A stretch of DNA of 64,000 nucleotides, from assembly GCA_004295055.1 (NCBI GenBank), contig SHNJ01000031.1, positions 170,898 to 234,897 on the forward strand. Direction: 5' to 3'. Positions within the stretch are counted from its first letter, which is position 1; each line of letters begins with the position of its first letter. Under the pieces are notes generated by a model that was not told the origin of the DNA, ran no database searches, and worked only from the letters and a program-made list of their open reading frames with translations. This DNA is from Alphaproteobacteria bacterium. GTDB taxonomy: Bacteria > Pseudomonadota > Alphaproteobacteria > SHNJ01. A program made the translations under genes and the position numbers. Below are positions 25,518 through 36,496 of the stretch, in pieces.

Positions 25518-25624
25518 AACCGGCTTTTTGGGCCCTTTGGCTTGATTTTATCAAACAAACCAATAACTTAATAATGACGCTTTATATTGACCTTATGGGC
25601 GGCATCCGCTATGTCCAATGGCAC

Positions 25625-25709
25625 GCGGGTATGGCGGAACTGGCAGACGCGCTGGATTTAGGTTCCAGTATCGAAAGATGTGTGGGTTCGACCCCCTCTA
25701 CCCGCACCA
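25625..25709 (+). tRNA. tRNA-Leu (anticodon TAG)
   Basis: GCGGGTATGGCGGAACTGGCAGACGCG-CTGGA TT TAG GT TCCAG-long variable arm-GGTTCGACCCC...CCCGCACCA; 85 nt; canonical position before tig. Confidence 0.97.
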
Positions 25710-25829
25710 GCCTTCGCTCCTACGGAGCTACGGCTCGGCATGCCGGATCTTGTTCTGTCAACGCTCGCGGTGATAGTATAAAAGGTAAGAAGGCTGTCGC
25801 GTCGAAGCTGCGAAGCAGCGTAGACGGGC
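25710..25829. repeat. REP-like palindromic element, family B (two imperfect inverted arms), abutting the tRNA-Leu CCA
   Basis: Left arm GCCTTCGCTCCTACGGAGCTACGGCTCGGCATGCC (25710-25744); right arm GGCTGTCGCGTCGAAGCTGCGAAGCAGCGTAGACGGGC (25792-25829). Confidence 0.7.
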
Positions 25830-25838
25830 TGGATCAGA

Positions 25839-26075
25839 ATGCACTATGTTTATATTATTAAAAGTCAAGTCGGAGATCATTATTATACTGGATGCACAGA
25901 AAATATAGAAACTAGAGTAAGAAATCACAATGAAGGCAGTGTTCCACATACCGCCAAATATAAACCCTGGATTATCAAAACTTATTTAGCATTTGCAGAC
26001 AAACAACAAGCAATTAATTTTGAGAAATATCTTAAAACAGCTTCAGGTAGAGCATTTGCAAAAAAGCGATTATAA
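25839..26075 (+). CDS. Stand-alone small GIY-YIG nuclease family protein
   Basis: YVYIIKS...YYTGCTENIETRVRNHNEG...AINFEKYLK keeps the Tyr, Arg, His and Glu pattern; visibly AT-rich relative to tig. Confidence 0.9.
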   Translation: MHYVYIIKSQVGDHYYTGCTENIETRVRNHNEGSVPHTAKYKPWIIKTYLAFADKQQAINFEKYLKTASGRAFAKKRL

Positions 26076-26093
26076 CAAATTTTAGGAATCATC

Positions 26094-27518
26094 ATGCAAG
26101 TCGTACAAAAAGAAAAACAAGGATTGAAACACAGCTTCGAAGTAAAAATTCCGCGCTCGGTGATCAATCAAAATATTGAAACCAAATTGCAGGAAATCAG
26201 CGAAAAGGTGACCATCCCTGGTTTTCGTCCAGGCAAGGCGCCAGCAACTTTGTTAAAACAAAAATACGGCGGTTCGGTCATGGGTGAGGTTGTTGATTTC
26301 ACCGTACGCGATTCCTATACCAAAGCGCTTGAGGAAAAGGGCCTGCGCGCTGCGGCTGCACCAAAAGTGGAAATTAAAGAATTCGGCGATGACAAAGATT
26401 TGGTTTACACTTTTGACGTTGAAGTCATGCCGGAAATCAAAGTCAAAGGCCTTGATAAAGTAAAATTTGAAAAAATTAAGTGCGACGTTACCGACAAAGA
26501 CATCGATGAAGCATTGAAAACTTTGTCCGAACGTCACAAGGCTTCACGCGAATTGACCGAAAAACGCGCCGCGAAAACCGGCGATCATGTAACGATCGAT
26601 TTTCTGGGTAAGGTCGATGGCGTTGCATTCGAAGGCGGCGAAGCTAAAGGATACAAATTGCATTTGGGATCAGGCAATTTCTTGCCGGATTTTGAAAGCG
26701 GCGTTGTCGGCATCAGTGTCGGCGAAAGCAAAGATATTCCAGTCGGTTTTCCGGCGGAATATCATGCGCCGAATCTTGCCGGTAAAACCGCGACCTTTAC
26801 CATTACCGTGCACAAGATCGAAGAAGAAATGGAAGCCAAAATCGATGATGAATTGGCTAAACGCCTGGGCTTTCCAAGCCTGGATGATTTGAAAGAAGCG
26901 GCTAAAACCCAAATCGGCCGTGAATATGATGCCGTCGCGCGCGAGAAAAATAAAAAGGCGCTGTTTGACGTGTTGCACGAAGAATTCGATTTCGAATTGC
27001 CGCAAGGTTTGCTCGAAGATGAATTCAAATCCATCTGGAAACAATTCGAAGAAGCCAAGAAAAACAACCAAGTCGCCGCCGAAGACAAAGAAAAATCGGA
27101 CGCGGATATGGAAAAAGAATTGCGCGACATTGCCGAACGCCGGGTAAAACTGGGCCTGTTATTGTCGGAAATCGGCAGCCACAATAAAATCGAAGTATCG
27201 GATGATGAATTGCGCCGCGCCATTATCGCCGAAGCGCAACGGTACCCGGGCCAGGAACAAAAAGTGGTGGAATTTTACAGCACTCAGCCACAGGCCCTGA
27301 TGAGCATCCGGGGACCATTACTGGAAGAAAAAGTGATCGATTTCATTTTCGAGGTGGCCAATGTCACCGTAAAATCAATCACTAAAGAAGATTTATTCAC
27401 AGCCGATGATTCCGGGAAGTCTTCCGGCAAGAAATCTGCTAAATCTAGTAAGAAGGCTGAATCGAGCGGCGATGCGGAAGAAGCAAAGCCGAAAGCGAAG
27501 AAAGCCAAAAAAGAATAA
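26094..27518 (+). CDS. tig: Trigger factor
   Basis: [14 protein letters not shown] domain ([15 protein letters not shown]...[13 protein letters not shown]), [11 protein letters not shown]. Confidence 0.98.
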
Positions 27519-27550
27519 ATCTTATTGCGGTATCATCAAAGGAGTTCCCC

Positions 27551-28210
27551 ATGTTAATCCGTGATCGCGATCCAATCGAAGTGTATAATGACTTGGTTCC
27601 TATCGTTATCGAGCAAACTGCACGCGGGGAACGGTCTTTTGATATTTTCTCCCGCCTGTTGAAAGAACGGATCATTTTCCTGACTGGCCCTGTTAACGAC
27701 ACTATGTCGTGCCTGATCTGCGCGCAATTGCTGTTCTTGGAATCGGAAAATCCAACCAAAGACATTTTTATGTACATCAACTCGCCAGGCGGCGTTGTTA
27801 CCTCGGGCCTTGCTATGTATGATACGATGCAATATATCCGTTGCCACGTTTCGACCGTATGTATCGGCCAGGCGGCATCGATGGGTTCGTTATTGCTGAC
27901 CGCCGGTCAAAAAGGCAAGCGTTTCGCCTTGCCAAATGCGCGGGTGATGATTCACCAGCCATCGGGCGGCGCGCAAGGCCAGGCAACCGATATTGAAATT
28001 CAAGCCCGCGAAATTTTATCGCTGCGCCAACGTTTGAATCAAATCTATGTCAAACACACCGGCCAGAAATTGGATCTGATCCAATCGTCGATGGAACGCG
28101 ATAAATTTATGAATCCAGAAGAGGCTAAAGATTTCGGCCTGATCGACCAAGTGGTCGAACAACGCCCGGGTGGAAAAGAATCCAAAGAAGAAGGCAAGAA
28201 AGCGGCTTAA
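27551..28210 (+). CDS. clpP: ATP-dependent Clp protease proteolytic subunit
   Basis: [45 protein letters not shown]. Confidence 0.98.
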
Positions 28211-28333
28211 CGCCTTACCGCCTCTTAAAGCAATTCATAAAATCTCGGGCTTGTTCGGCTTGGGAAAAGCATGAATGTTGTTGAAAATAAACAATAAAAT
28301 GTTTGCAATGCGCCCTTCCATATTGTTTTGGGA

Positions 28334-28378
28334 TATGATATAATAAGCATATTCTATCGTAAGAACAATTATATCATA
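28334..28378. promoter_or_regulatory. Inverted repeat TATGATATAAT-N23-ATTATATCATA, each arm an extended -10 (TGnTATAAT)
   Basis: Perfect 11-bp arms at 28334-28344 and 28368-28378. Confidence 0.5.
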
Positions 28379-28391
28379 AGGGGCGAAGGCA

Positions 28392-28904
28392 TTGCAGACC
28401 GTGGAAACTCAGCATTTCGATCAAAGATTGAAAGTTAACAAAGAATTCTTGGCAGCCGTGATGGCTTATATGGAAGGTGCTCAAGCTCAAGAGCATCCCC
28501 TTCTTCGTGACTATCAAGCGGAAGGCGCGCCATTGGACAAAGTTGCGGCCTTAATAAAGGACGCGATCCAGCCCCCCGTACAAGGTCAGCGTCCCGACAA
28601 ACAGCAGATTGAAGCGACGATAGTGCTGGAAGAGGCTATAAAAACTGTGGTTTTCGACGATCTTGGGCCCCCGCGTCATCAAAAGACTTGGGAAGAGTTT
28701 GGAGGAAGAGAAGCCTATTTGCTGCAAAGAACTTTAGCGGCGACCCAACAGCTTTTAAAATACAGAAGAGAAACGAATCCAACCTTCAATAAAACCTCTA
28801 TAGAATTTTTGGGCCGCGTTGAAAAAAACCTGGCTACAAGACAGGGTCAAATTTCCCGCGAAAATTTTTTAAAGCAAGCCAAGATGCCTCAAAATCATAA
28901 ATAA
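28392..28904 (+). CDS. Hypothetical protein (orphan) between clpP and clpX
   Basis: 170-aa helical ORF; upstream extended -10 and SD-like sequence; start TTG 28392 or GTG 28401. Confidence 0.65.
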   Translation: MQTVETQHFDQRLKVNKEFLAAVMAYMEGAQAQEHPLLRDYQAEGAPLDKVAALIKDAIQPPVQGQRPDKQQIEATIVLEEAIKTVVFDDLGPPRHQKTWEEFGGREAYLLQRTLAATQQLLKYRRETNPTFNKTSIEFLGRVEKNLATRQGQISRENFLKQAKMPQNHK

Positions 28905-29174
28905 ATATGGCATACCGGCGCCGTCCGCCAATTTTACAAGCTGGCGCCGTTCATACAAAACGGCGATTCTTTCGCGCCGCCTTGTATATTCCGGCAACAC
29001 ACTGCCGGGGATGCCGCTCGCAATAAGCGCCGCTAGAGATACATAACCAATAACTGTGATATTGTCTGTGGTGTTTGTGGTTTCTGTGCCAATCAAGTGA
29101 CTATGGATAATTTTTGTGCCGATATTCGAAAGGAAATAGCGCGGAAAACCAAGCCTAACCGCTATGCTATACAT
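28869..29174 (-). CDS. Possible hypothetical protein
   Basis: 101-aa ORF fills the remaining gap and overlaps the 3' end of ORF 28392; weak support. Confidence 0.3.
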   Translation of the reverse strand: MYSIAVRLGFPRYFLSNIGTKIIHSHLIGTETTNTTDNITVIGYVSLAALIASGIPGSVLPEYTRRRERIAVLYERRQLVKLADGAGMPYLFMILRHLGLL

Positions 29175-29263
29175 AGAATATTAACCACATTCAGGCGATC
29201 CTGGTAACAAGATGTTCTTTCTTGTTGCAACGAACCTAGGGGGCGCGGTCCGCGTCAGTTTTC

Positions 29264-30526
29264 ATGAGCAAAAATGCCGATAGCAAAAACACCTTGTACT
29301 GCTCGTTCTGCGGAAAATCACAACACGAAGTTCGCAAATTAATCGCCGGGCCAACCGTATTCATCTGCGATGAATGCGTTGAATTATGCGTAGACATTAT
29401 TCGCGAAGAAAGCAAATCCGCGCTGGTCAAATCCGGCGATACGATTCCAACCCCGGTCGAAATCCGCAAAATTTTGGATGATTATGTGATCGGTCAGGAC
29501 TTCGCTAAAAAAGTTTTATCGGTTGCGGTGCATAACCACTATAAACGTCTTGCCGCCGCCGCGAAAAGCAACGATATCGAAATCAACAAATCGAATATCT
29601 TGCTGATCGGTCCGACCGGTTCGGGCAAAACATTATTGGCGCAAACCTTGGCGCGCATTTTGGATGTGCCGTTCACCATGGCCGACGCCACCACATTGAC
29701 CGAAGCCGGTTATGTCGGTGAAGACGTTGAAAATATTATCCTGCGCTTATTGCAAGCGGCCGATTACAATGTCGAGCGCACGCAAAAAGGTATCGTGTAT
29801 ATCGACGAAATCGACAAAATTTCCCGTAAATCGGATAACCCGTCCATTACCCGCGACGTTTCGGGCGAGGGCGTACAGCAGGCCTTGTTGAAATTGATGG
29901 AAGGCACGACCGCGTCGGTTCCACCGCAGGGCGGCCGTAAACATCCGCAACAAGAGTTCCTGCAAGTCGATACCACCAACATTCTATTTATTTGCGGCGG
30001 CGCGTTCGCCGGGATCGAAAAAATTATCTCGACTCGCGGCAAGGGCAGTGCCATCGGATTCGGCGCCGAAGTGCGTGGTCCGGACGATCGGCGTGCCGGC
30101 GCGATCTTGCGCGAATTGGAACCCGAAGATTTGCTGAAATACGGATTGATTCCAGAATTTATCGGCCGTTTGCCGGTGATCGCCACGCTGGAAGATTTGA
30201 ATGTCGACGCATTGATCGAAATTCTTACCCGTCCAAAAAACGCATTGTGCAAACAATATGGCCGTTTGTTCGACATGGAAGGCGTAAAACTGACCTTCCA
30301 GGAAGACGCATTAAAGGCGATCGCGGAAAAGGCGATCAAGCGCAATACCGGGGCACGCGGTTTGCGGACCATCATGGAATCGATATTGCTCGAAACCATG
30401 TATAATCTGCCTGGCATGACGGATGTAAACGAGGTCGTCATTAACCGCGAGGTGGTTGAAACCAAGGGTCAGCCTATCTATATTTATGGGGATAAGAAAA
30501 AGGACAGCGCGGCGGCAGCCAGCTAG
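29264..30526 (+). CDS. clpX: Clp protease ATP-binding subunit ClpX
   Basis: Zn finger CSFCGK...[41 protein letters not shown]. Confidence 0.99.
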
Positions 30527-30618
30527 ATTTTTGCTTATTTTAACCTATTTACTATATAATAGACCATGCTATCGCGTGGAATCTTTAGTCCATAAATATA
30601 CAAGCCAAAGGGTGCTTA

Positions 30619-33051
30619 ATGACCGAATCCAGCCGTAATCAGATAATCCCAGTTTTGCCGTTGCGCGATATTGTGGTGTTTCCGCATATGATCGTGCCGC
30701 TTTTCGTAGGCCGGGTAAAATCCGTTCGGGCGCTGGAAGAAGTCATGTTGGATGACAAGCAAATTCTGCTCGCAACCCAAATCAATAAAGACCAAGACGA
30801 TCCAAAAACCGACGAGATTTACAAAATCGGCACCGTGGGCACAATTCTGCAAATGCTGAAATTGCCGGATGAAACCGTAAAGGTTTTGGTCGAAGGCGTT
30901 TACCGGGCGAAAATTATCGAATACATCGATCATCCAAATTATTACCAAGCCAAGATCGAACCGATCAAAGACGAAATTCCGGATCAGAACGAAACCGAGG
31001 CTTTGGCGCGCGCGGTATCGACGCAGTTTGAAAATTACGTCAAGCTGAACAAAAAAATTCCACCGGAAGTATTGGTTTCGATCAACCAAATCGAAGGCGC
31101 CAGCAAATTGGCCGATTCGATCGCATCTCACTTGCCGGTTAAAAACGCCGAAACGCAATTCGGCCTGAAAATCGCTGAAAAGCAAGAATTGCTGGAAACC
31201 ATGGATGTTTCCAAGCGTCTGGAAAAAGTATTCGCGTACATGGAAGCCGAAATCGGCGTTCTGCAAATGGACAAAAAAATCCGCAGCCGGGTCAAAAAGC
31301 AAATGGAAAAAACCCAGCGCGAGTATTATTTGAACGAACAATTGAAGGCAATTCAAAAAGAATTGGGCGAATCCGAAGACGGTACCAACGAGATTCAGGA
31401 ACTGGAGACACGGATCAAGAAAACGCGCCTGTCCAAAGAAGCGCGCGAAAAATGCGGCGCCGAATTGAAAAAGCTGAAAACCATGTCGCCAATGTCCGCC
31501 GAAGCGACCGTGGTGCGCAATTATTTGGACTGGATGCTGTCGATTCCATGGAAAAAACCATCGCGCATTAAATCGGATCTTAAAGACGCAAAATCGATTC
31601 TGGATTCCGATCATTATGGCTTGGAAAAAGTCAAAGAACGCATTGTCGAACATTTGGCGGTGCAAACCCGCACCAAAAAAATCCGCGGTCCAATCTTGTG
31701 CCTCGTCGGCCCTCCTGGCGTTGGTAAAACCTCGCTGGGCAAATCGATTGCCAAGGCCACAGGCCGGAACTTTGTCCGTATGTCGCTTGGCGGCGTGCGG
31801 GATGAAGCCGAAGTACGCGGTCACCGCAGAACCTATATCGGATCCATGCCCGGCAAAGTGATTCAGGGCATGAAAAAAGCCAAATCGTCCAACCCATTAT
31901 TCTTGCTCGATGAAATCGACAAAATGGGATCGGATTGGCGCGGCGATCCGGCGGCTGCCTTGCTCGAAGTTCTGGATCCAGAACAAAACAGCACTTTTGC
32001 GGATCATTATCTGGAAGTCGATTATGATTTGTCGGATGTTATGTTCGTTACCACCGCCAATACGCTGCGTATGTCGCAGCCGTTGCTGGATCGGATGGAG
32101 ATCATCCGCATTCCGGGCTATACCGAACAGGAAAAAATCGAAATCGCGCGCCGTCACTTGCTACCCAAGGCAATTAAAGAAAATGGGTTAAAGGACGACG
32201 AATTCAAAGTTCAAGACTCGGCGCTTACCGATTTGATCCGTTATTACACCCGCGAGGCTGGCGTGCGGAACCTGGAACGCGAAATCATGACCCTGGCCCG
32301 TAAATCGGTCAAAGAAATCATGATCGAAGGCGTCAAAAAGGTGGATGTCAGCAGCAAGAATTTAGAAAAATTCGCTGGCGTGCGCAAATTCCGCTATGGC
32401 GAGGTTGAAACCGAAGACCAAGTCGGCGTGACGACCGGCCTTGCCTGGACCGAAGTTGGCGGCGATTTATTGTCGATCGAAGCCGTCGTGGTTCCCGGCA
32501 AGGGCAAAATGCAAATCACCGGCAAATTGGGCGATGTGATGCAGGAATCGGTGCAAGCCGCAGCCTCGTTCGTTCGTTCCAAAGCGCTTTCTTATGGCAT
32601 CAAACCGCCTTTGTTTGAAAAACGCGATATTCATATTCACGTTCCCGAAGGCGCCACGCCGAAAGACGGCCCATCGGCCGGTATCGCGATGTGCACATCG
32701 ATCGTATCGGTGTTATCCGGTATTCCGGTGCGCAAAGATATCGCCATGACTGGCGAGATCACATTGCGTGGCCGCGTGTTGGGCATCGGTGGTCTGAAAG
32801 AAAAATTACTGGCGGCGCATCGTGGCGGCATTAAAACCGTCTTGATTCCCCAGGAAAATGAAAAAGATCTTGCGGATATTCCGGACAACGTCAAAAAGTC
32901 GCTGGAAATTATTCCAGTGTCCATTGCCGACGAAGTTTTGAAACATGCCTTGATCCGTCAACCCGTTGCTATCGAATGGCCGGAAGACGTGATTGAACCC
33001 ACCACGGCCAAAAAAGATGGCCCGGCGGATGATGGCGTAACCGCGCATTAA
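30619..33051 (+). CDS. lon: Lon protease
   Basis: [48 protein letters not shown]. Confidence 0.99.
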
Positions 33052-33069
33052 CAAAATTCACGGACAAGG

Positions 33070-33115
33070 ATTAAGCGTATTTTTGCATTTGCAATCATAC
33101 GCTTAATTGCTTTTT
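33070..33115 (+). terminator. Stem-loop after lon, probable terminator
   Basis: ATTAAGCGTAT / ATACGCTTAAT 11-bp arms followed by TGCTTTTT. Confidence 0.5.
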
Positions 33116-33195
33116 ACCCCTCGAAAACCCCAATATTTCCAGCATTTTTATCCACCGAAAAGCAGGAAAGCCCTATAAAATCAGCATTTGTGGAC

Positions 33196-33224
33196 TTGAC
33201 CGGTTTTTAAATAGGGCCTTTAAT
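33196..33224 (+). promoter_or_regulatory. Sigma70-type promoter for hup (TTGACC-N17-TTTAAT)
   Basis: Motifs at 33196-33201 and 33219-33224. Confidence 0.5.
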
Positions 33225-33343
33225 TTCATGTAACGCTGGTTTTTATGGGATTTCCGAACGCTTCCTAAACCGAGCCGTTTGCGAGAACCCCTGACTTCCA
33301 GGCCTTTTAAGCACTCGCAACCCTAACCTCCACGAGGACTATC

Positions 33344-33616
33344 ATGAATAAAGGTGAATTTATCGAAGCCGTGTCGAAGAAATCCGGCCTGTCAAAAGCC
33401 CAATGCCAGAAATTCTGGGAAGTGTGCAGCGACGTGATTACCAAAGCGCTGAAAAGCAACGATGATGTCAACTTGACCCCATTCGGCAAGTTTTACATCA
33501 CCAAACGCGCCGCAACCACCGGCCGCAACCCACGCACCGGCCAAACCATCCAAATCAAAGCTCGCAAACAGCCAAAATTCAAATCCGGCAAAGGTTTGAA
33601 AGATGCTGTTGCCTAA
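33344..33616 (+). CDS. hup: Histone-like DNA-binding protein HU
   Basis: MNKGEFIEAV...PFGKF...GRNPRTG...PKFKSGKGLKDAV; canonical position after lon. Confidence 0.95.
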   Translation: MNKGEFIEAVSKKSGLSKAQCQKFWEVCSDVITKALKSNDDVNLTPFGKFYITKRAATTGRNPRTGQTIQIKARKQPKFKSGKGLKDAVA

Positions 33617-33640
33617 TCGTTAAAGGCATGCGAAATTCCA

Positions 33641-33668
33641 AAGGCCGGTCCAATGACCGGCCTTTTTT
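33641..33668 (+). terminator. Intrinsic terminator after hup
   Basis: AAGGCCGGTC-CAAT-GACCGGCCTT followed by a T-run. Confidence 0.85.
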
Positions 33669-33684
33669 CATGTTAGGCAGGATT

Positions 33685-34713
33685 ATGCAGTACGACGTCG
33701 TTGGAATTTGCAAAGCGTATACCGATGAATGGGTGCGGGTTTCTGATGCCGATTTATCCAGGCTTGGCCTAACTAAATGCGGTTCCCGCCCCGCGAACAT
33801 CGATGAGATCGAGCGTATTCTCGCTTCGCTTCCCCCGGGCCGGAAGATTGCAGGCGGGCCTGTGGCCAATACGATTGCGGGGATCGCCAATCTTGGCGGC
33901 TGGGGGGCGTTTATCGGCAAATATGGCGACGATGCGCGCGGCCGGATATTTCAAGACGATTACCGTCAACGCAATGTGTTCATGGACAAAAACAAAACGG
34001 TCATCAAGGGGGGCGATACGGCCTGTTGCTTGGTGCTGGTCACGCCGGATGGCGAGCGATCCTTTATCACCAATCAAGGCGTATCGATGGACCTTGGTGT
34101 AAACGATATGCCCGCAGGGCTGCTATCTAGCGGCCAATTTGTGTTTTTCGGTCTGCCGTTTTGGCATGAATCCCATTTACCGGTCTTGCGCCATGCCGCC
34201 CGTCTTGCGCGGCAGGCACGCAAAGTCATCAACCTGCAATCCTATGATCCATCGATCCGGTCCGCCGATTTTACCCGCGCTTTACTGGCCGAAGTCGATA
34301 TCGTTATCGGTAATCGCACCGAATTTCAAGCTTTGTCGAATAATTTAGGTTTCGCCGACAGTGCCGAATTGCATGCCAAATGGCCACACACTATTACTTG
34401 GTGTGAAACAAGCGGTGGCGATGGCGTTCATATTCGCGGGGTGGAAGTACATTTTATTCCGACGACACCCGTGGCAACAGTTACGGACACCACCGGGGCG
34501 GGGGATGCATTCGCGGCCGGATTGTTATATGGCATGGCGCGCAATTGGGGTTGGAAAAAATCCGCTTTGCTGGGTCATCGCTGCGCAACCGATATTATCG
34601 TCACCGAAGGCGCAAGGCCAATCAGGCCTTGGAAGAATTTTGTGGCGGTGGAGAATGATGGTGGTGGAGGTGGTGTCCCACGCGAACTTCTAAGAAAGGA
34701 TGAGGGGCGGTAA
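33685..34713 (+). CDS. PfkB/adenosine kinase-like carbohydrate kinase
   Basis: AGGPVANT, AFIGKYGDD, LVLVTPDGERS, DTTGAGDAFAAG; ATG 33685 lies past the hup terminator. Confidence 0.88.
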   Translation: MQYDVVGICKAYTDEWVRVSDADLSRLGLTKCGSRPANIDEIERILASLPPGRKIAGGPVANTIAGIANLGGWGAFIGKYGDDARGRIFQDDYRQRNVFMDKNKTVIKGGDTACCLVLVTPDGERSFITNQGVSMDLGVNDMPAGLLSSGQFVFFGLPFWHESHLPVLRHAARLARQARKVINLQSYDPSIRSADFTRALLAEVDIVIGNRTEFQALSNNLGFADSAELHAKWPHTITWCETSGGDGVHIRGVEVHFIPTTPVATVTDTTGAGDAFAAGLLYGMARNWGWKKSALLGHRCATDIIVTEGARPIRPWKNFVAVENDGGGGGVPRELLRKDEGR

Positions 34714-34758
34714 TAAAAGGGGCGTGGCTTGCCTAGTTGTAGCACGAGGTGCTTTAGT

Positions 34759-34809
34759 CCGCCTTCGCCCTAAAGGGCTTCGGCGCGACAGTCTTCGCTG
34801 CGTGAAGAC
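34759..34809. repeat. Solo REP-like element, family B, abutting the tRNA-Val CCA
   Basis: CCGCCTTCGCCCTAAAGGGCTTCGGCGCGACAGTCTTC...GAAGAC; 34778-34791 matches the reverse complement of 25794-25807 at 13/14 nt. Confidence 0.7.
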
Positions 34810-34885
34810 TGGTGGGCGCTGACGGGATCGAACCGCCGACCCTCTCGGTGTAAACGAGATGCTCTCCCAGCTGAGCTAAGCGCCC
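34810..34885 (-). tRNA. tRNA-Val (anticodon TAC)
   Basis: Reverse complement GGGCGCTTAGCTCAGCTGGGAGAGCA-TCTCG TT TAC AC CGAGA-GGGTCGGCGGTTCGATCCCGTCAGCGCCCACCA; 76 nt; upstream TTGATT-N17-TAATAA. Confidence 0.97.
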
Positions 34886-36419: not shown

Positions 36420-36496
36420 GGGGGTGTAGTTCAGTTGGTTAGAACGCCTGCCTGTCACGCAGGAGGTCGCGGGTTCGAGTCCCGTCGCTCCCGCCA
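36420..36496 (+). tRNA. tRNA-Asp (anticodon GTC)
   Basis: GGGGGTGTAGTTCAGTTGGTTAGAACG-CCTGC CT GTC AC GCAGG-AGGTCGCGGGTTCGAGTCCCGTCGCTCCCGCCA; 77 nt. Confidence 0.97.

Follow-up and report, generated by a model that had tools for sequence, protein, structure and literature searches.

The 64,000-nucleotide stretch analysed here (the window; contig SHNJ01000031.1 of an Alphaproteobacteria bacterium, lineage SHNJ01) carries two copies of a single, widespread and apparently undescribed family of repeats, the unit of which is a directional DNA hairpin placed directly behind the CCA end of a tRNA gene. The copy behind tRNA-Leu bears a gene for a 78-amino-acid (78-aa) GIY-YIG protein, wedged into an otherwise conserved tRNA-Leu/tig junction, and the copy behind tRNA-Val is gene-less. 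Because the hairpins behave as a mobile and mostly gene-less population and the nuclease as a long-kept chromosomal partner, we favour, with somewhat more confidence than doubt, a system akin to the REPIN repeats and their RAYT transposases, in which a bare, structure-specific Slx1-like GIY-YIG nuclease would take the place of the transposase. In a full-text literature search no account was found that connects small GIY-YIG genes with hairpin repeats and with the ends of tRNA or tmRNA genes.

Examination of the repeat unit shows that it is 34-45 nucleotides (nt) long and occurs in single, inverted-pair or nested-pair copies. Each module has a basal stem, a 3x3 internal loop (G-W-A/G-W-A) and an inner stem that varies, and about half of the modules carry a GNA triloop; the sense strand of the unit reads 5'-TGCCG(C/A)GCC-G(W)A-GC-[stem-loop-stem]-GC-G(W)A-GGC(G/T)GG-3'. 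The tRNA-side and gene-side modules are reverse complements of this one unit: the sense strand of the gene-side module is the strand of the gene, and that of the tRNA-side module opposes the tRNA, with its final TGG complementing the CCA. An earlier note on this DNA had described a two-armed palindrome right after the CCA of tRNA-Leu, and the two arms are indeed two inverted modules (Table 1). The tRNA-side one reads, in plus-strand letters, GCCTTCGC-CTCC-TAC-GGAG-CTACGGCTCGGCATGCC (as a whole GCCTTCGCTCCTACGGAGCTACGGCTCGGCATGCC) and contains the core CTACGGCTCGGCA with 0 mismatches; in the gene-side one the basal stem is CGTC/GACG, the internal loop is GAA/GTA, and the inner stem is capped by a GAA triloop. 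Positions 25707-25838 are predicted to form one long imperfect hairpin (-56.2 kcal/mol, z = -3.1), with 1 of 200 shuffles equally stable.

The same note had reported a 13/14-nt match between the tRNA-Leu and tRNA-Val flanks and taken the latter for a solo relative. The match is real and was understated, given that the 20-nt motif GAAGRCTGTCGCGYCGAAGC occurs exactly twice in the 64 kb (25789 on the plus and 34777 on the minus strand; 0.02 expected) and that none of 100 shuffles has two matches to it. The flank is a relative, as claimed, but not a solo one, comprising instead a full nested module pair. On the minus strand it opens GTCTTCACGCAGCGAAGAC, continues TGTCGCGCCGAAGCCCTTTAGGGCGAAGGCGGAC and closes with GCTACAACTAGGCAAGCC; these letters make up a hairpin GTCTTC-ACGCAGC-GAAGAC (34809-34791), a full module TGTCGCGCCGAAG-CCC-TTTA-GGG-CGAAGGCGGAC (34790-34757) and, after a linker, a degenerate distal second box (34743-34726), and the whole folds at -35.8 kcal/mol (z = -2.7). 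The 3' flank of tRNA-Asp, the third tRNA considered in the window, has no module, as had been observed. Scans with the Rfam covariance models yielded tRNA matches only, both in the window (E up to 1), where no family lay over the spacer, and at six other loci (E up to 0.1).

Table 1. Coordinates of the tRNA genes, hairpin modules and nuclease gene in the window.
Feature	Positions	Strand	Basis	Remarks
tRNA-Leu(tag)	25625-25709	+	ARAGORN; Rfam tRNA 50.1 bits	3' end CCGCACCA; anchors gene-bearing unit
tRNA-side hairpin module	25710-25744	sense strand -	sequence	first base directly follows CCA of tRNA-Leu
Inter-module spacer	25745-25788	none		44 nt, AT-richer, variable; holds TGATAGTAT at 25771-25779
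Gene-side hairpin module	25789-25829	+		GAAGGC-TGTCGCGTCGAAG-CTGC-GAA-GCAG-CGTAGACGGGC; whole GAAGGCTGTCGCGTCGAAGCTGCGAAGCAGCGTAGACGGGC
GIY-YIG nuclease gene, 78 aa	25839-26075	+		ATG 9 nt past module; stop 18 nt before tig start at 26094
tRNA-Val(tac)	34810-34885	-	ARAGORN; Rfam 63.8 bits	3' end GCCCACCA; anchors gene-less unit
Gene-less nested module pair	34809-34726	-		fills gap between tRNA-Val and pfkB stop at 34713
tRNA-Asp(gtc)	36420-36496	+	ARAGORN; Rfam	ends CGCCA; in-window negative control

The hairpin is under selection. In an alignment of 52 modules, pairing holds in 96.9% of the cells of the two helices, a figure that drops to 84.2% on shuffling and to 25-43% when the partners are slid; two-sided changes account for 62 cells where 14.7 are expected, and one basal pair is found as CG, GC, UA and AU. 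Module polarity is likewise conserved: among 219 distinct modules the triloop is GNA in 104 and its complement TNC in 0, and GNA triloops are found in both classes of module (41 of 77 on the tRNA side and 52 of 114 on the gene side), that is, on opposite DNA strands. Such polarity is expected if a protein reads the hairpin as single-stranded DNA; a role solely in the transcript of the tRNA gene would hardly account for it. Two orders of modules were seen: in type 1 (47 loci) the tRNA-side module is followed by the gene-side module, and in type 2 (15 of the 72 gene-bearing loci, an order shared by the gene-less tRNA-Val copy of the window) the gene-side module is nested in the loop of the tRNA-side hairpin. 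The covariation in the 52 modules strongly supports the pairing inside each module; conserved long-range pairing between two modules was considered and rejected, in that the W positions, judged by eye, display no inter-module covariation. A single inserted module carries CCA at its end, and at several loci the next module begins right behind such an internal CCA; thus, with modules often ending in CCA, further modules stack behind them.

The association of tRNA end, hairpins and nuclease gene recurs well beyond the window. We assembled a gene-first sample of 80 loci from species-representative genomes of about a dozen phyla (Alphaproteobacteria, Acidobacteriota, Verrucomicrobiota, several delta-type lineages, Latescibacterota, Marinimicrobia, TM6, Peregrinibacteria and others). 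In 71 of the 80 the nuclease gene lies 88-404 nt behind the end of a tRNA or tmRNA gene of the same orientation; the partners span at least 13 tRNA types besides tmRNA, including those for Ala, Val, Ile, Met, Arg, His, Lys, Pro, Thr, Ser, Asp and Tyr. A GCCTTCGC-like box stands at offset 0 from the CCA in 66 of 72 spacers (the window included), in 53 of them as exact GCCTTCGC, and in 78 of 80 loci module cores precede the gene by no more than about 400 nt, in nearly all by about 300 nt at most. The distance from the last module to the start codon is 15 nt or less in 32 of 72 loci. The earlier note's rule that the elements follow CACCA holds as a strong preference, with ACCA preceding the element in 66 of 72 cases, but not as a rule, as GCCA, TCCA and CCCA are used too, including at tRNA-Asp elsewhere. 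Its view of the hairpins as the two ends of an element fails: both lie between tRNA and gene, a module copy is also present behind the gene in only about 12 of 84 loci, and the DNA past the gene varies between loci.

A complementary motif-first scan, in which the 18-nt box alone was compared with metagenome contigs and the gene ignored, found the box 130 times, at 120 loci. Upstream sequence sufficed for 120 of the matches, 105 of which adjoin a tRNA-like 3' end, and a gene of the GIY-YIG clade follows within 450 nt in 26 of the 98 with enough sequence downstream. The two approaches tie the palindrome to tRNA and tmRNA ends and to this small nuclease clade, an association that had been conjectured from the window. 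Gene-less copies, proposed in the note as non-autonomous derivatives, outnumber gene-bearing ones (55 of the 79 tRNA-linked matches with both flanks readable), and 35 of these 55 are pairs. Single contigs bear modules behind two or three different tRNAs, and most tRNAs in occupied genomes have no element. The 18-nt box had just 4 matches in 2.9 million viral contigs, all without the GCCTTCGC box; these look like chance hits inside other sequence and, with no protein match in phage collections, a phage link of the module was rejected.

Several loci of the sample have arrangements of their own. Behind tRNA-Pro(tgg), L039:2363-3745 contains, in tandem, three units that each combine a module pair with a GIY-YIG gene, and then a fourth, gene-less pair; each unit closes with a decayed copy of the 3' end of the tRNA (TCTTCGTCA). 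In L045, L057 and L061 a unit of module and gene lies between tRNA-Val(tac) and tRNA-Asp(gtc), in an apparent tRNA operon (about 200-700 nt around the gene). The labels Bifidobacterium and Kuenenia attached to metagenome-assembled genomes among these three are unlikely, as the protein groups with Alphaproteobacteria, which suggests that the contigs behind them were binned into the wrong genomes.

Comparison of related loci documents gain and loss of the modules and of the gene. Among the closest available relatives at the tRNA-Leu/tig junction (Tig 68-78% identical), L083 and L217 have a plain spacer of 76 nt with neither module nor gene, and their tRNA-Val flank is empty too; L085 and L215 have a near-identical tRNA-side module behind tRNA-Leu, no gene, and variant modules behind tRNA-Val; L081 has merely a short GCCTTC-type hairpin; and in the window both tRNA sites are occupied, with the gene in addition at tRNA-Leu. 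Occupancy thus varies by lineage, at both sites together, and the nuclease gene, missing there in relatives, is an addition to an otherwise conserved junction. Empty alleles, which the earlier note had proposed looking for, are therefore on record for both window sites. The inter-module spacer of the window may be what is left of the spacer that originally separated tRNA-Leu from tig; similar AT-rich stretches are also present in the gene-less spacers of L081 and L085. The nearest relatives of the window gene (64-67% identity) lie behind tRNA-Ala or tRNA-Val in unrelated neighbourhoods.

Modules themselves are gained and lost precisely at the CCA. The soil contigs L207:6650-7612 and L210:1349-2625, which hold related tRNA clusters, differ by three reciprocal insertions or deletions (indels) of a single module of 32-34 nt, all placed exactly at a tRNA CCA and each insert ending in CCA. 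A module behind tRNA-Cys is present in L210 only (alignment 76.5% identical); one behind tRNA-Leu(caa) is present in L207 only, and one behind the tRNA following tRNA-Leu(caa) in L210 only (both in an alignment 92% identical). These polymorphisms bear out the note's proposal of insertion at tRNA 3' ends. In about 12 gene-bearing loci the module set recurs on the far side of the gene, at times with a short copy of the 3' end of the tRNA ahead of it; in L078 the CCCACCA plus module set is repeated behind the gene over 97 nt at 99% identity. Such repeated module sets flanking the gene could allow its gain and loss by recombination. The flanking repeats seen are the 7-nt CCCACCA, in L078 only, and CCA at both ends of single modules, where the 3-nt repeat may be part of the module unit itself. 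A uniform 7-nt target-duplication model was tried and set aside: it fits L078 and partly L088 and L039, and fails for most loci and for the window. On the protein tree the tRNA partner changes 29 times, against about 40 with shuffled labels and a minimum of 13.

In a wastewater metagenome (run X5) a strain 98.6% identical over ftsB/tRNA-Leu has no contig over 25752-26087, which holds the nuclease gene; after GCCTTCGCT its contig continues with an inverted module copy and then a foreign CCTCCACCA-like (CCACCA-like) end, and may be a gene-less allele or a chimera. In L216:9600-9830 (also L086 and L087; Tig 68% identity) tRNA-Leu(tag) stands in the opposite orientation to tig, and behind it direct repeats of about 30 nt containing the tRNA 3' end enclose an insert about 140 nt long, to judge from its layout the att-like scar left by another kind of element. 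In L215:20775-20940 a second tRNA-Asp 3' end (GCTCCCGCCA) followed by GCCTTCGC lies about 130 nt downstream of tRNA-Asp, as though a later insertion had displaced an older module. The gene-less tRNA-Leu/tig spacer at L215:9830-9930 (= L085:2830-2930) holds a long palindrome, GTCATCCCGGCGTAAGCCGGGATCC...GGATCCCG...CGGGATGAC, unrelated to the tRNA-end module.

The 78-aa AT-rich GIY-YIG gene recognised by the earlier note in the tRNA-Leu/tig junction matches the Pfam domain PF01541 at E = 2.7e-16 (60 bits; cut-off 22.6), with residues 1-71 aligned to profile positions 1-74 of 78, so that the protein is a bare domain and nothing else. The GC content of its open reading frame (ORF) is 0.29-0.35, compared with 0.45-0.55 for the flanks and 0.58 for the palindrome. 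In a 43-sequence alignment Y16, G18, R26, N31, H37 and E62 never vary, conservation at Y3, Y5 and H30 is 90% or higher, and all of these positions fall in the stretch aligned with Slx1; the GIY-YIG catalytic residues are thus retained in the clade, and the protein is a predicted nuclease. The invariant core and a YLKS-SGRAFAKKRL tail extend clade-wide. Close relatives number more than 1,000 at about 60-68% identity, and a profile search recovered 3,175 clusters (50% identity) at E <= 1e-10. The sequence profile also reaches solved UPF0213 structures (BH0048, 1ZG2, E = 4.6e-9; EF2693, 1YWL, 2.8e-4). An AlphaFold model (predicted local distance difference test, pLDDT, 96.1) has its best fold match in the Slx1 nuclease domain (template-modelling score, TM, 0.70-0.75; root-mean-square deviation about 2.2 A; 25-29% identity), followed by 1ZG2 (TM 0.58, 29% identity), with I-TevI and UvrC more distant (TM 0.50-0.56). 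It ends at residue 78, where no zinc finger follows; Slx1 chains are 250-300 residues long, of which the first 95 or so align. Neither Pfam nor the model indicates a second (DNA-binding) domain such as a homing endonuclease has, no NCBIfam model claims the protein, and PHROG and PADLOC hold no family matching it. Together these comparisons point to a clade related to, yet distinct from, UPF0213 (COG2827). We take E. coli YhbQ to be a member of the latter group. Our literature search found neither an established function nor a tRNA linkage for UPF0213 proteins.

This protein is under strong purifying selection. Among Bradyrhizobium-type orthologues, which have a common downstream gene and a common tRNA-Ala(ggc), the pairwise ratio of non-synonymous to synonymous substitutions (dN/dS) is about 0.05, with dS saturated. 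The protein tree clusters by phylum (15 label changes versus 33 with shuffled labels), so that rampant cross-phylum transfer was rejected, and tblastn at E <= 1e-8 gave no match among 72,556 plasmids and 50,697 phages. Family members are often called as proteins of 100-140 residues, with 25-60 extra ahead of the domain; we suspect that these are ORFs running into the hairpins, in which case they flag a systematic annotation problem.

As regards expression, a promoter scan of the tRNA-to-gene interval called none, and the nearest promoter-like site lies upstream of tRNA-Leu (25548-25575). The letters of the -10-like box TGATAGTAT that the earlier note had placed between the arms are present, but the scan did not call them a promoter. 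In the acidobacterial clade a GGAGG in the 3' arm of the module is the only plausible ribosome-binding site of the gene, and GGAGG is found in the 3' arm in many of the 32 loci with a nearby start codon. In the sole RNA run with words from the window, coverage takes in the tRNA and part of tig but misses the nuclease gene. RNA-seq contigs from Rhizobium run unbroken and at high depth across tRNA-Ala, modules and gene, which is weak evidence because the contigs have no direction and DNA carry-over is possible.

The data establish the three-part architecture, the selection on the hairpin and its strand polarity, the precise gain and loss of modules at the CCA, the occupation of several tRNAs on one contig and the purifying selection on the protein; the action of the nuclease on the hairpins, the cleavage site, the route of copying and any effect on tRNA processing, which the earlier note had raised, are inferred. 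In our reading the hairpins form a population that is mobile, mostly without the gene and directed to the CCA of tRNA-like genes, while the nuclease, linked physically to the hairpin next to it, is their long-kept partner, inherited with the chromosome. The nuclease would recognise the hairpin in single-stranded DNA and nick it at its base or at the CCA junction, and host replication and repair would finish the copying or loss of modules. Slx1 cuts branched and stem-loop DNA by structure, not sequence, which is what a hairpin-recognising partner would need. A bolder version, which we consider less likely than not, holds that the 34-nt hairpin itself transposes via single-stranded DNA to just 3' of the CCA of tRNAs and tmRNA. 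Its sole dedicated protein would be the 78-aa Slx1-like GIY-YIG nicking domain, with the host doing the joining, and the whole would be an independently arisen REPIN/RAYT-like intragenomic replicator across about a dozen phyla, able to reshape tRNA 3' flanks and possibly maturation.

Several points weigh against a nuclease-driven repeat system. Contact between nuclease and hairpin is a prediction from their co-occurrence and from sequence, and the L207 and L210 contigs with the clean indels carry no GIY-YIG gene. GIY-YIG enzymes are hydrolytic and are not known to transfer strands, and a complete copying mechanism is therefore missing. Simple target duplication fits only some loci, and the window has no repeat after its gene. 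Purifying selection, the phylum-tracking tree and the fixed synteny in Bradyrhizobium would fit a host function equally well. The hairpins may also play a role at the RNA level, in view of the ribosome-binding site that a gene-side module can hold and of the unbroken RNA-derived contigs of Rhizobium.

One alternative reverses the dependence, making the gene a free-standing homing-type cassette that parasitises hairpin repeats spread or kept by other means, cutting gene-less module sets so that repair, using a copy with modules on either side as donor, pastes the gene in. The direct repeats of tRNA 3' remnant and modules that flank the gene in about 12 of 84 gene-bearing loci (76-100% identity) would be ready homology arms, gene-less pairs are abundant as potential targets, L039 has three tandem units, and the window gene is compositionally foreign and missing from the same junction in relatives. 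We nevertheless regard this as unlikely: the low dN/dS with saturated dS and the stable tRNA-Ala(ggc) synteny in Bradyrhizobium are unlike cycling homing genes, the protein has no DNA-binding domain with which to read a long site, a module-flanked donor would hold the same cut site, and the clade was not found in the phage and plasmid collections. The REP/RAYT analogy with a different enzyme, as the earlier note had sketched it, fits better in outline than the homing picture, because of the purifying selection, the Bradyrhizobium synteny, the phylum-tracking tree and the lack of plasmid or phage matches. Our data likewise speak against the narrower picture of a mobile gene that reaches tRNA genes through cleavage by its own enzyme, and assign the mobility to the hairpins.

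A second family of explanations places the hairpins in the service of the host. They could be cis-elements at tRNA 3' ends (trailers, processing or termination signals, or buffers between replication and transcription), with the nuclease an ordinary host gene on the tRNA promoter and gain and loss due to indels and gene conversion. The exact placement at the mature tRNA 3' end, the selection on the hairpins, the strong and largely vertical conservation of the protein, the lack of a called promoter between tRNA and gene and the continuous RNA-derived contigs over the Rhizobium locus all agree with this view. We give it even less credence than the homing cassette, given that the distribution is patchy even among close relatives (L217 is empty at both sites, and L207 and L210 differ by reciprocal indels), that the same 34-nt unit with identical boundaries occurs at unrelated tRNAs, that nested and tandem copies exist, that the element is missing from most tRNAs in occupied genomes, and that the GNA-loop sense strand of the tRNA-side module, being antisense to the tRNA transcript, is hard to explain via RNA. 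Finally, the spacer could be a structured RNA co-transcribed with the tRNA (a 5' leader, a processing signal or a self-cleaving element) that frees the tRNA at its CCA and controls translation of the nuclease. The junction exactly at the CCA, the two circularly permuted orders of helices (47 type 1 and 15 type 2 loci), the ribosome-binding site inside the 3' arm at many loci and the stable predicted folds would suit such an RNA; it is nonetheless very improbable, as no Rfam family was found in the window or the six other loci even at permissive thresholds, 70% of the tRNA-linked modules have no downstream gene to regulate, and the unpaired conserved bases shared by inverted copies, with GNA/GWA polarity on opposite strands, point to recognition as DNA.

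Should the REPIN/RAYT-like reading be true, hairpin repeats with a dedicated, vertically kept enzyme would not be peculiar to HUH transposases, and a bare GIY-YIG domain without strand-transfer chemistry would fill the same role by a different copying route. It would also provide a function for a large orphan family (the 3,175 clusters noted above) and explain the common GCCTTCGC box that opens the 3' flanks of tRNAs and tmRNA in many soil and water bacteria. The 34-nt hairpin, if it is the transposing unit, would be among the smallest known. Elsewhere in the window, an ORF of 170 aa (28392-28904) between clpP and clpX has no Pfam match; since relatives hold a solute-binding protein, a helix-turn-helix regulator or a membrane transporter there instead, this slot in the tig-clpP-clpX-lon row is variable.

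Comparison with known systems brings out both precedents and departures. Set against miniature inverted-repeat transposable elements, defined by terminal inverted repeats, a target-site duplication and filled and empty sites, the picture is mixed: filled and empty sites are seen and the pairs form inverted repeats, single 34-nt modules also insert alone, and the repeat flanking them is the 3-nt CCA that may belong to the unit. Free-standing GIY-YIG homing endonucleases (T4 Seg proteins, with SegB in a tRNA cluster, and I-TevI) are likewise small genes between conserved genes, sometimes near tRNAs; they have C-terminal DNA-binding modules and reside in phages or introns, whereas the present protein is a bare domain under long-term purifying selection, without PHROG or phage-collection matches. 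With the IS200/IS605 elements and the attC sites of integrons the modules would share a recognised form that is a single-stranded DNA hairpin. Insertion directly 3' of a short fixed word (here CCA, mostly ACCA) without classical duplication recalls IS200/IS605, and the tandem promoter-less cassettes behind one promoter recall integrons; unlike both, the modules are adjoined by no Y1 transposase or integrase, and only by the gene of a hydrolytic nuclease. Slx1 and UPF0213 (COG2827; BH0048, PDB 1ZG2; EF2693, PDB 1YWL) are the nearest relatives in sequence and fold, with a common GIY-YIG core, and the clade-invariant R26 and E62 fall inside the block aligned with Slx1. The 78-aa protein differs from Slx1 in having neither a RING/PHD zinc finger nor an Slx4 partner, and from both groups in being a distinct clade with its own invariant YLKS-SGRAFAKKRL tail.

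The closest parallel is with the REP/REPIN repeats and their RAYT enzymes (PMC3116915; PMC5581495; bioRxiv 10.1101/2021.07.10.451892). Both systems consist of short GC-rich hairpins, found alone or in inverted doublets that form a single long hairpin, and for each enzyme gene, itself adjacent to repeats, there are many copies without a gene; singlets and doublets, gene-less copies (55 of 79), adjacency (78 of 80) and vertical inheritance are all found here. The enzyme is in both cases chromosomal, largely vertical and under purifying selection, with no plasmid or phage spread. The difference lies first in the enzyme: the HUH/Y1 tyrosine transposase that characterises REP/RAYT is lacking, and the only associated gene encodes a 78-aa hydrolytic GIY-YIG nuclease. 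It lies further in the target, the present repeats being confined to the exact CCA 3' end of tRNAs and tmRNA where REPINs are generally intergenic, and in the reach of the repeat itself, a module sequence common to about a dozen phyla.

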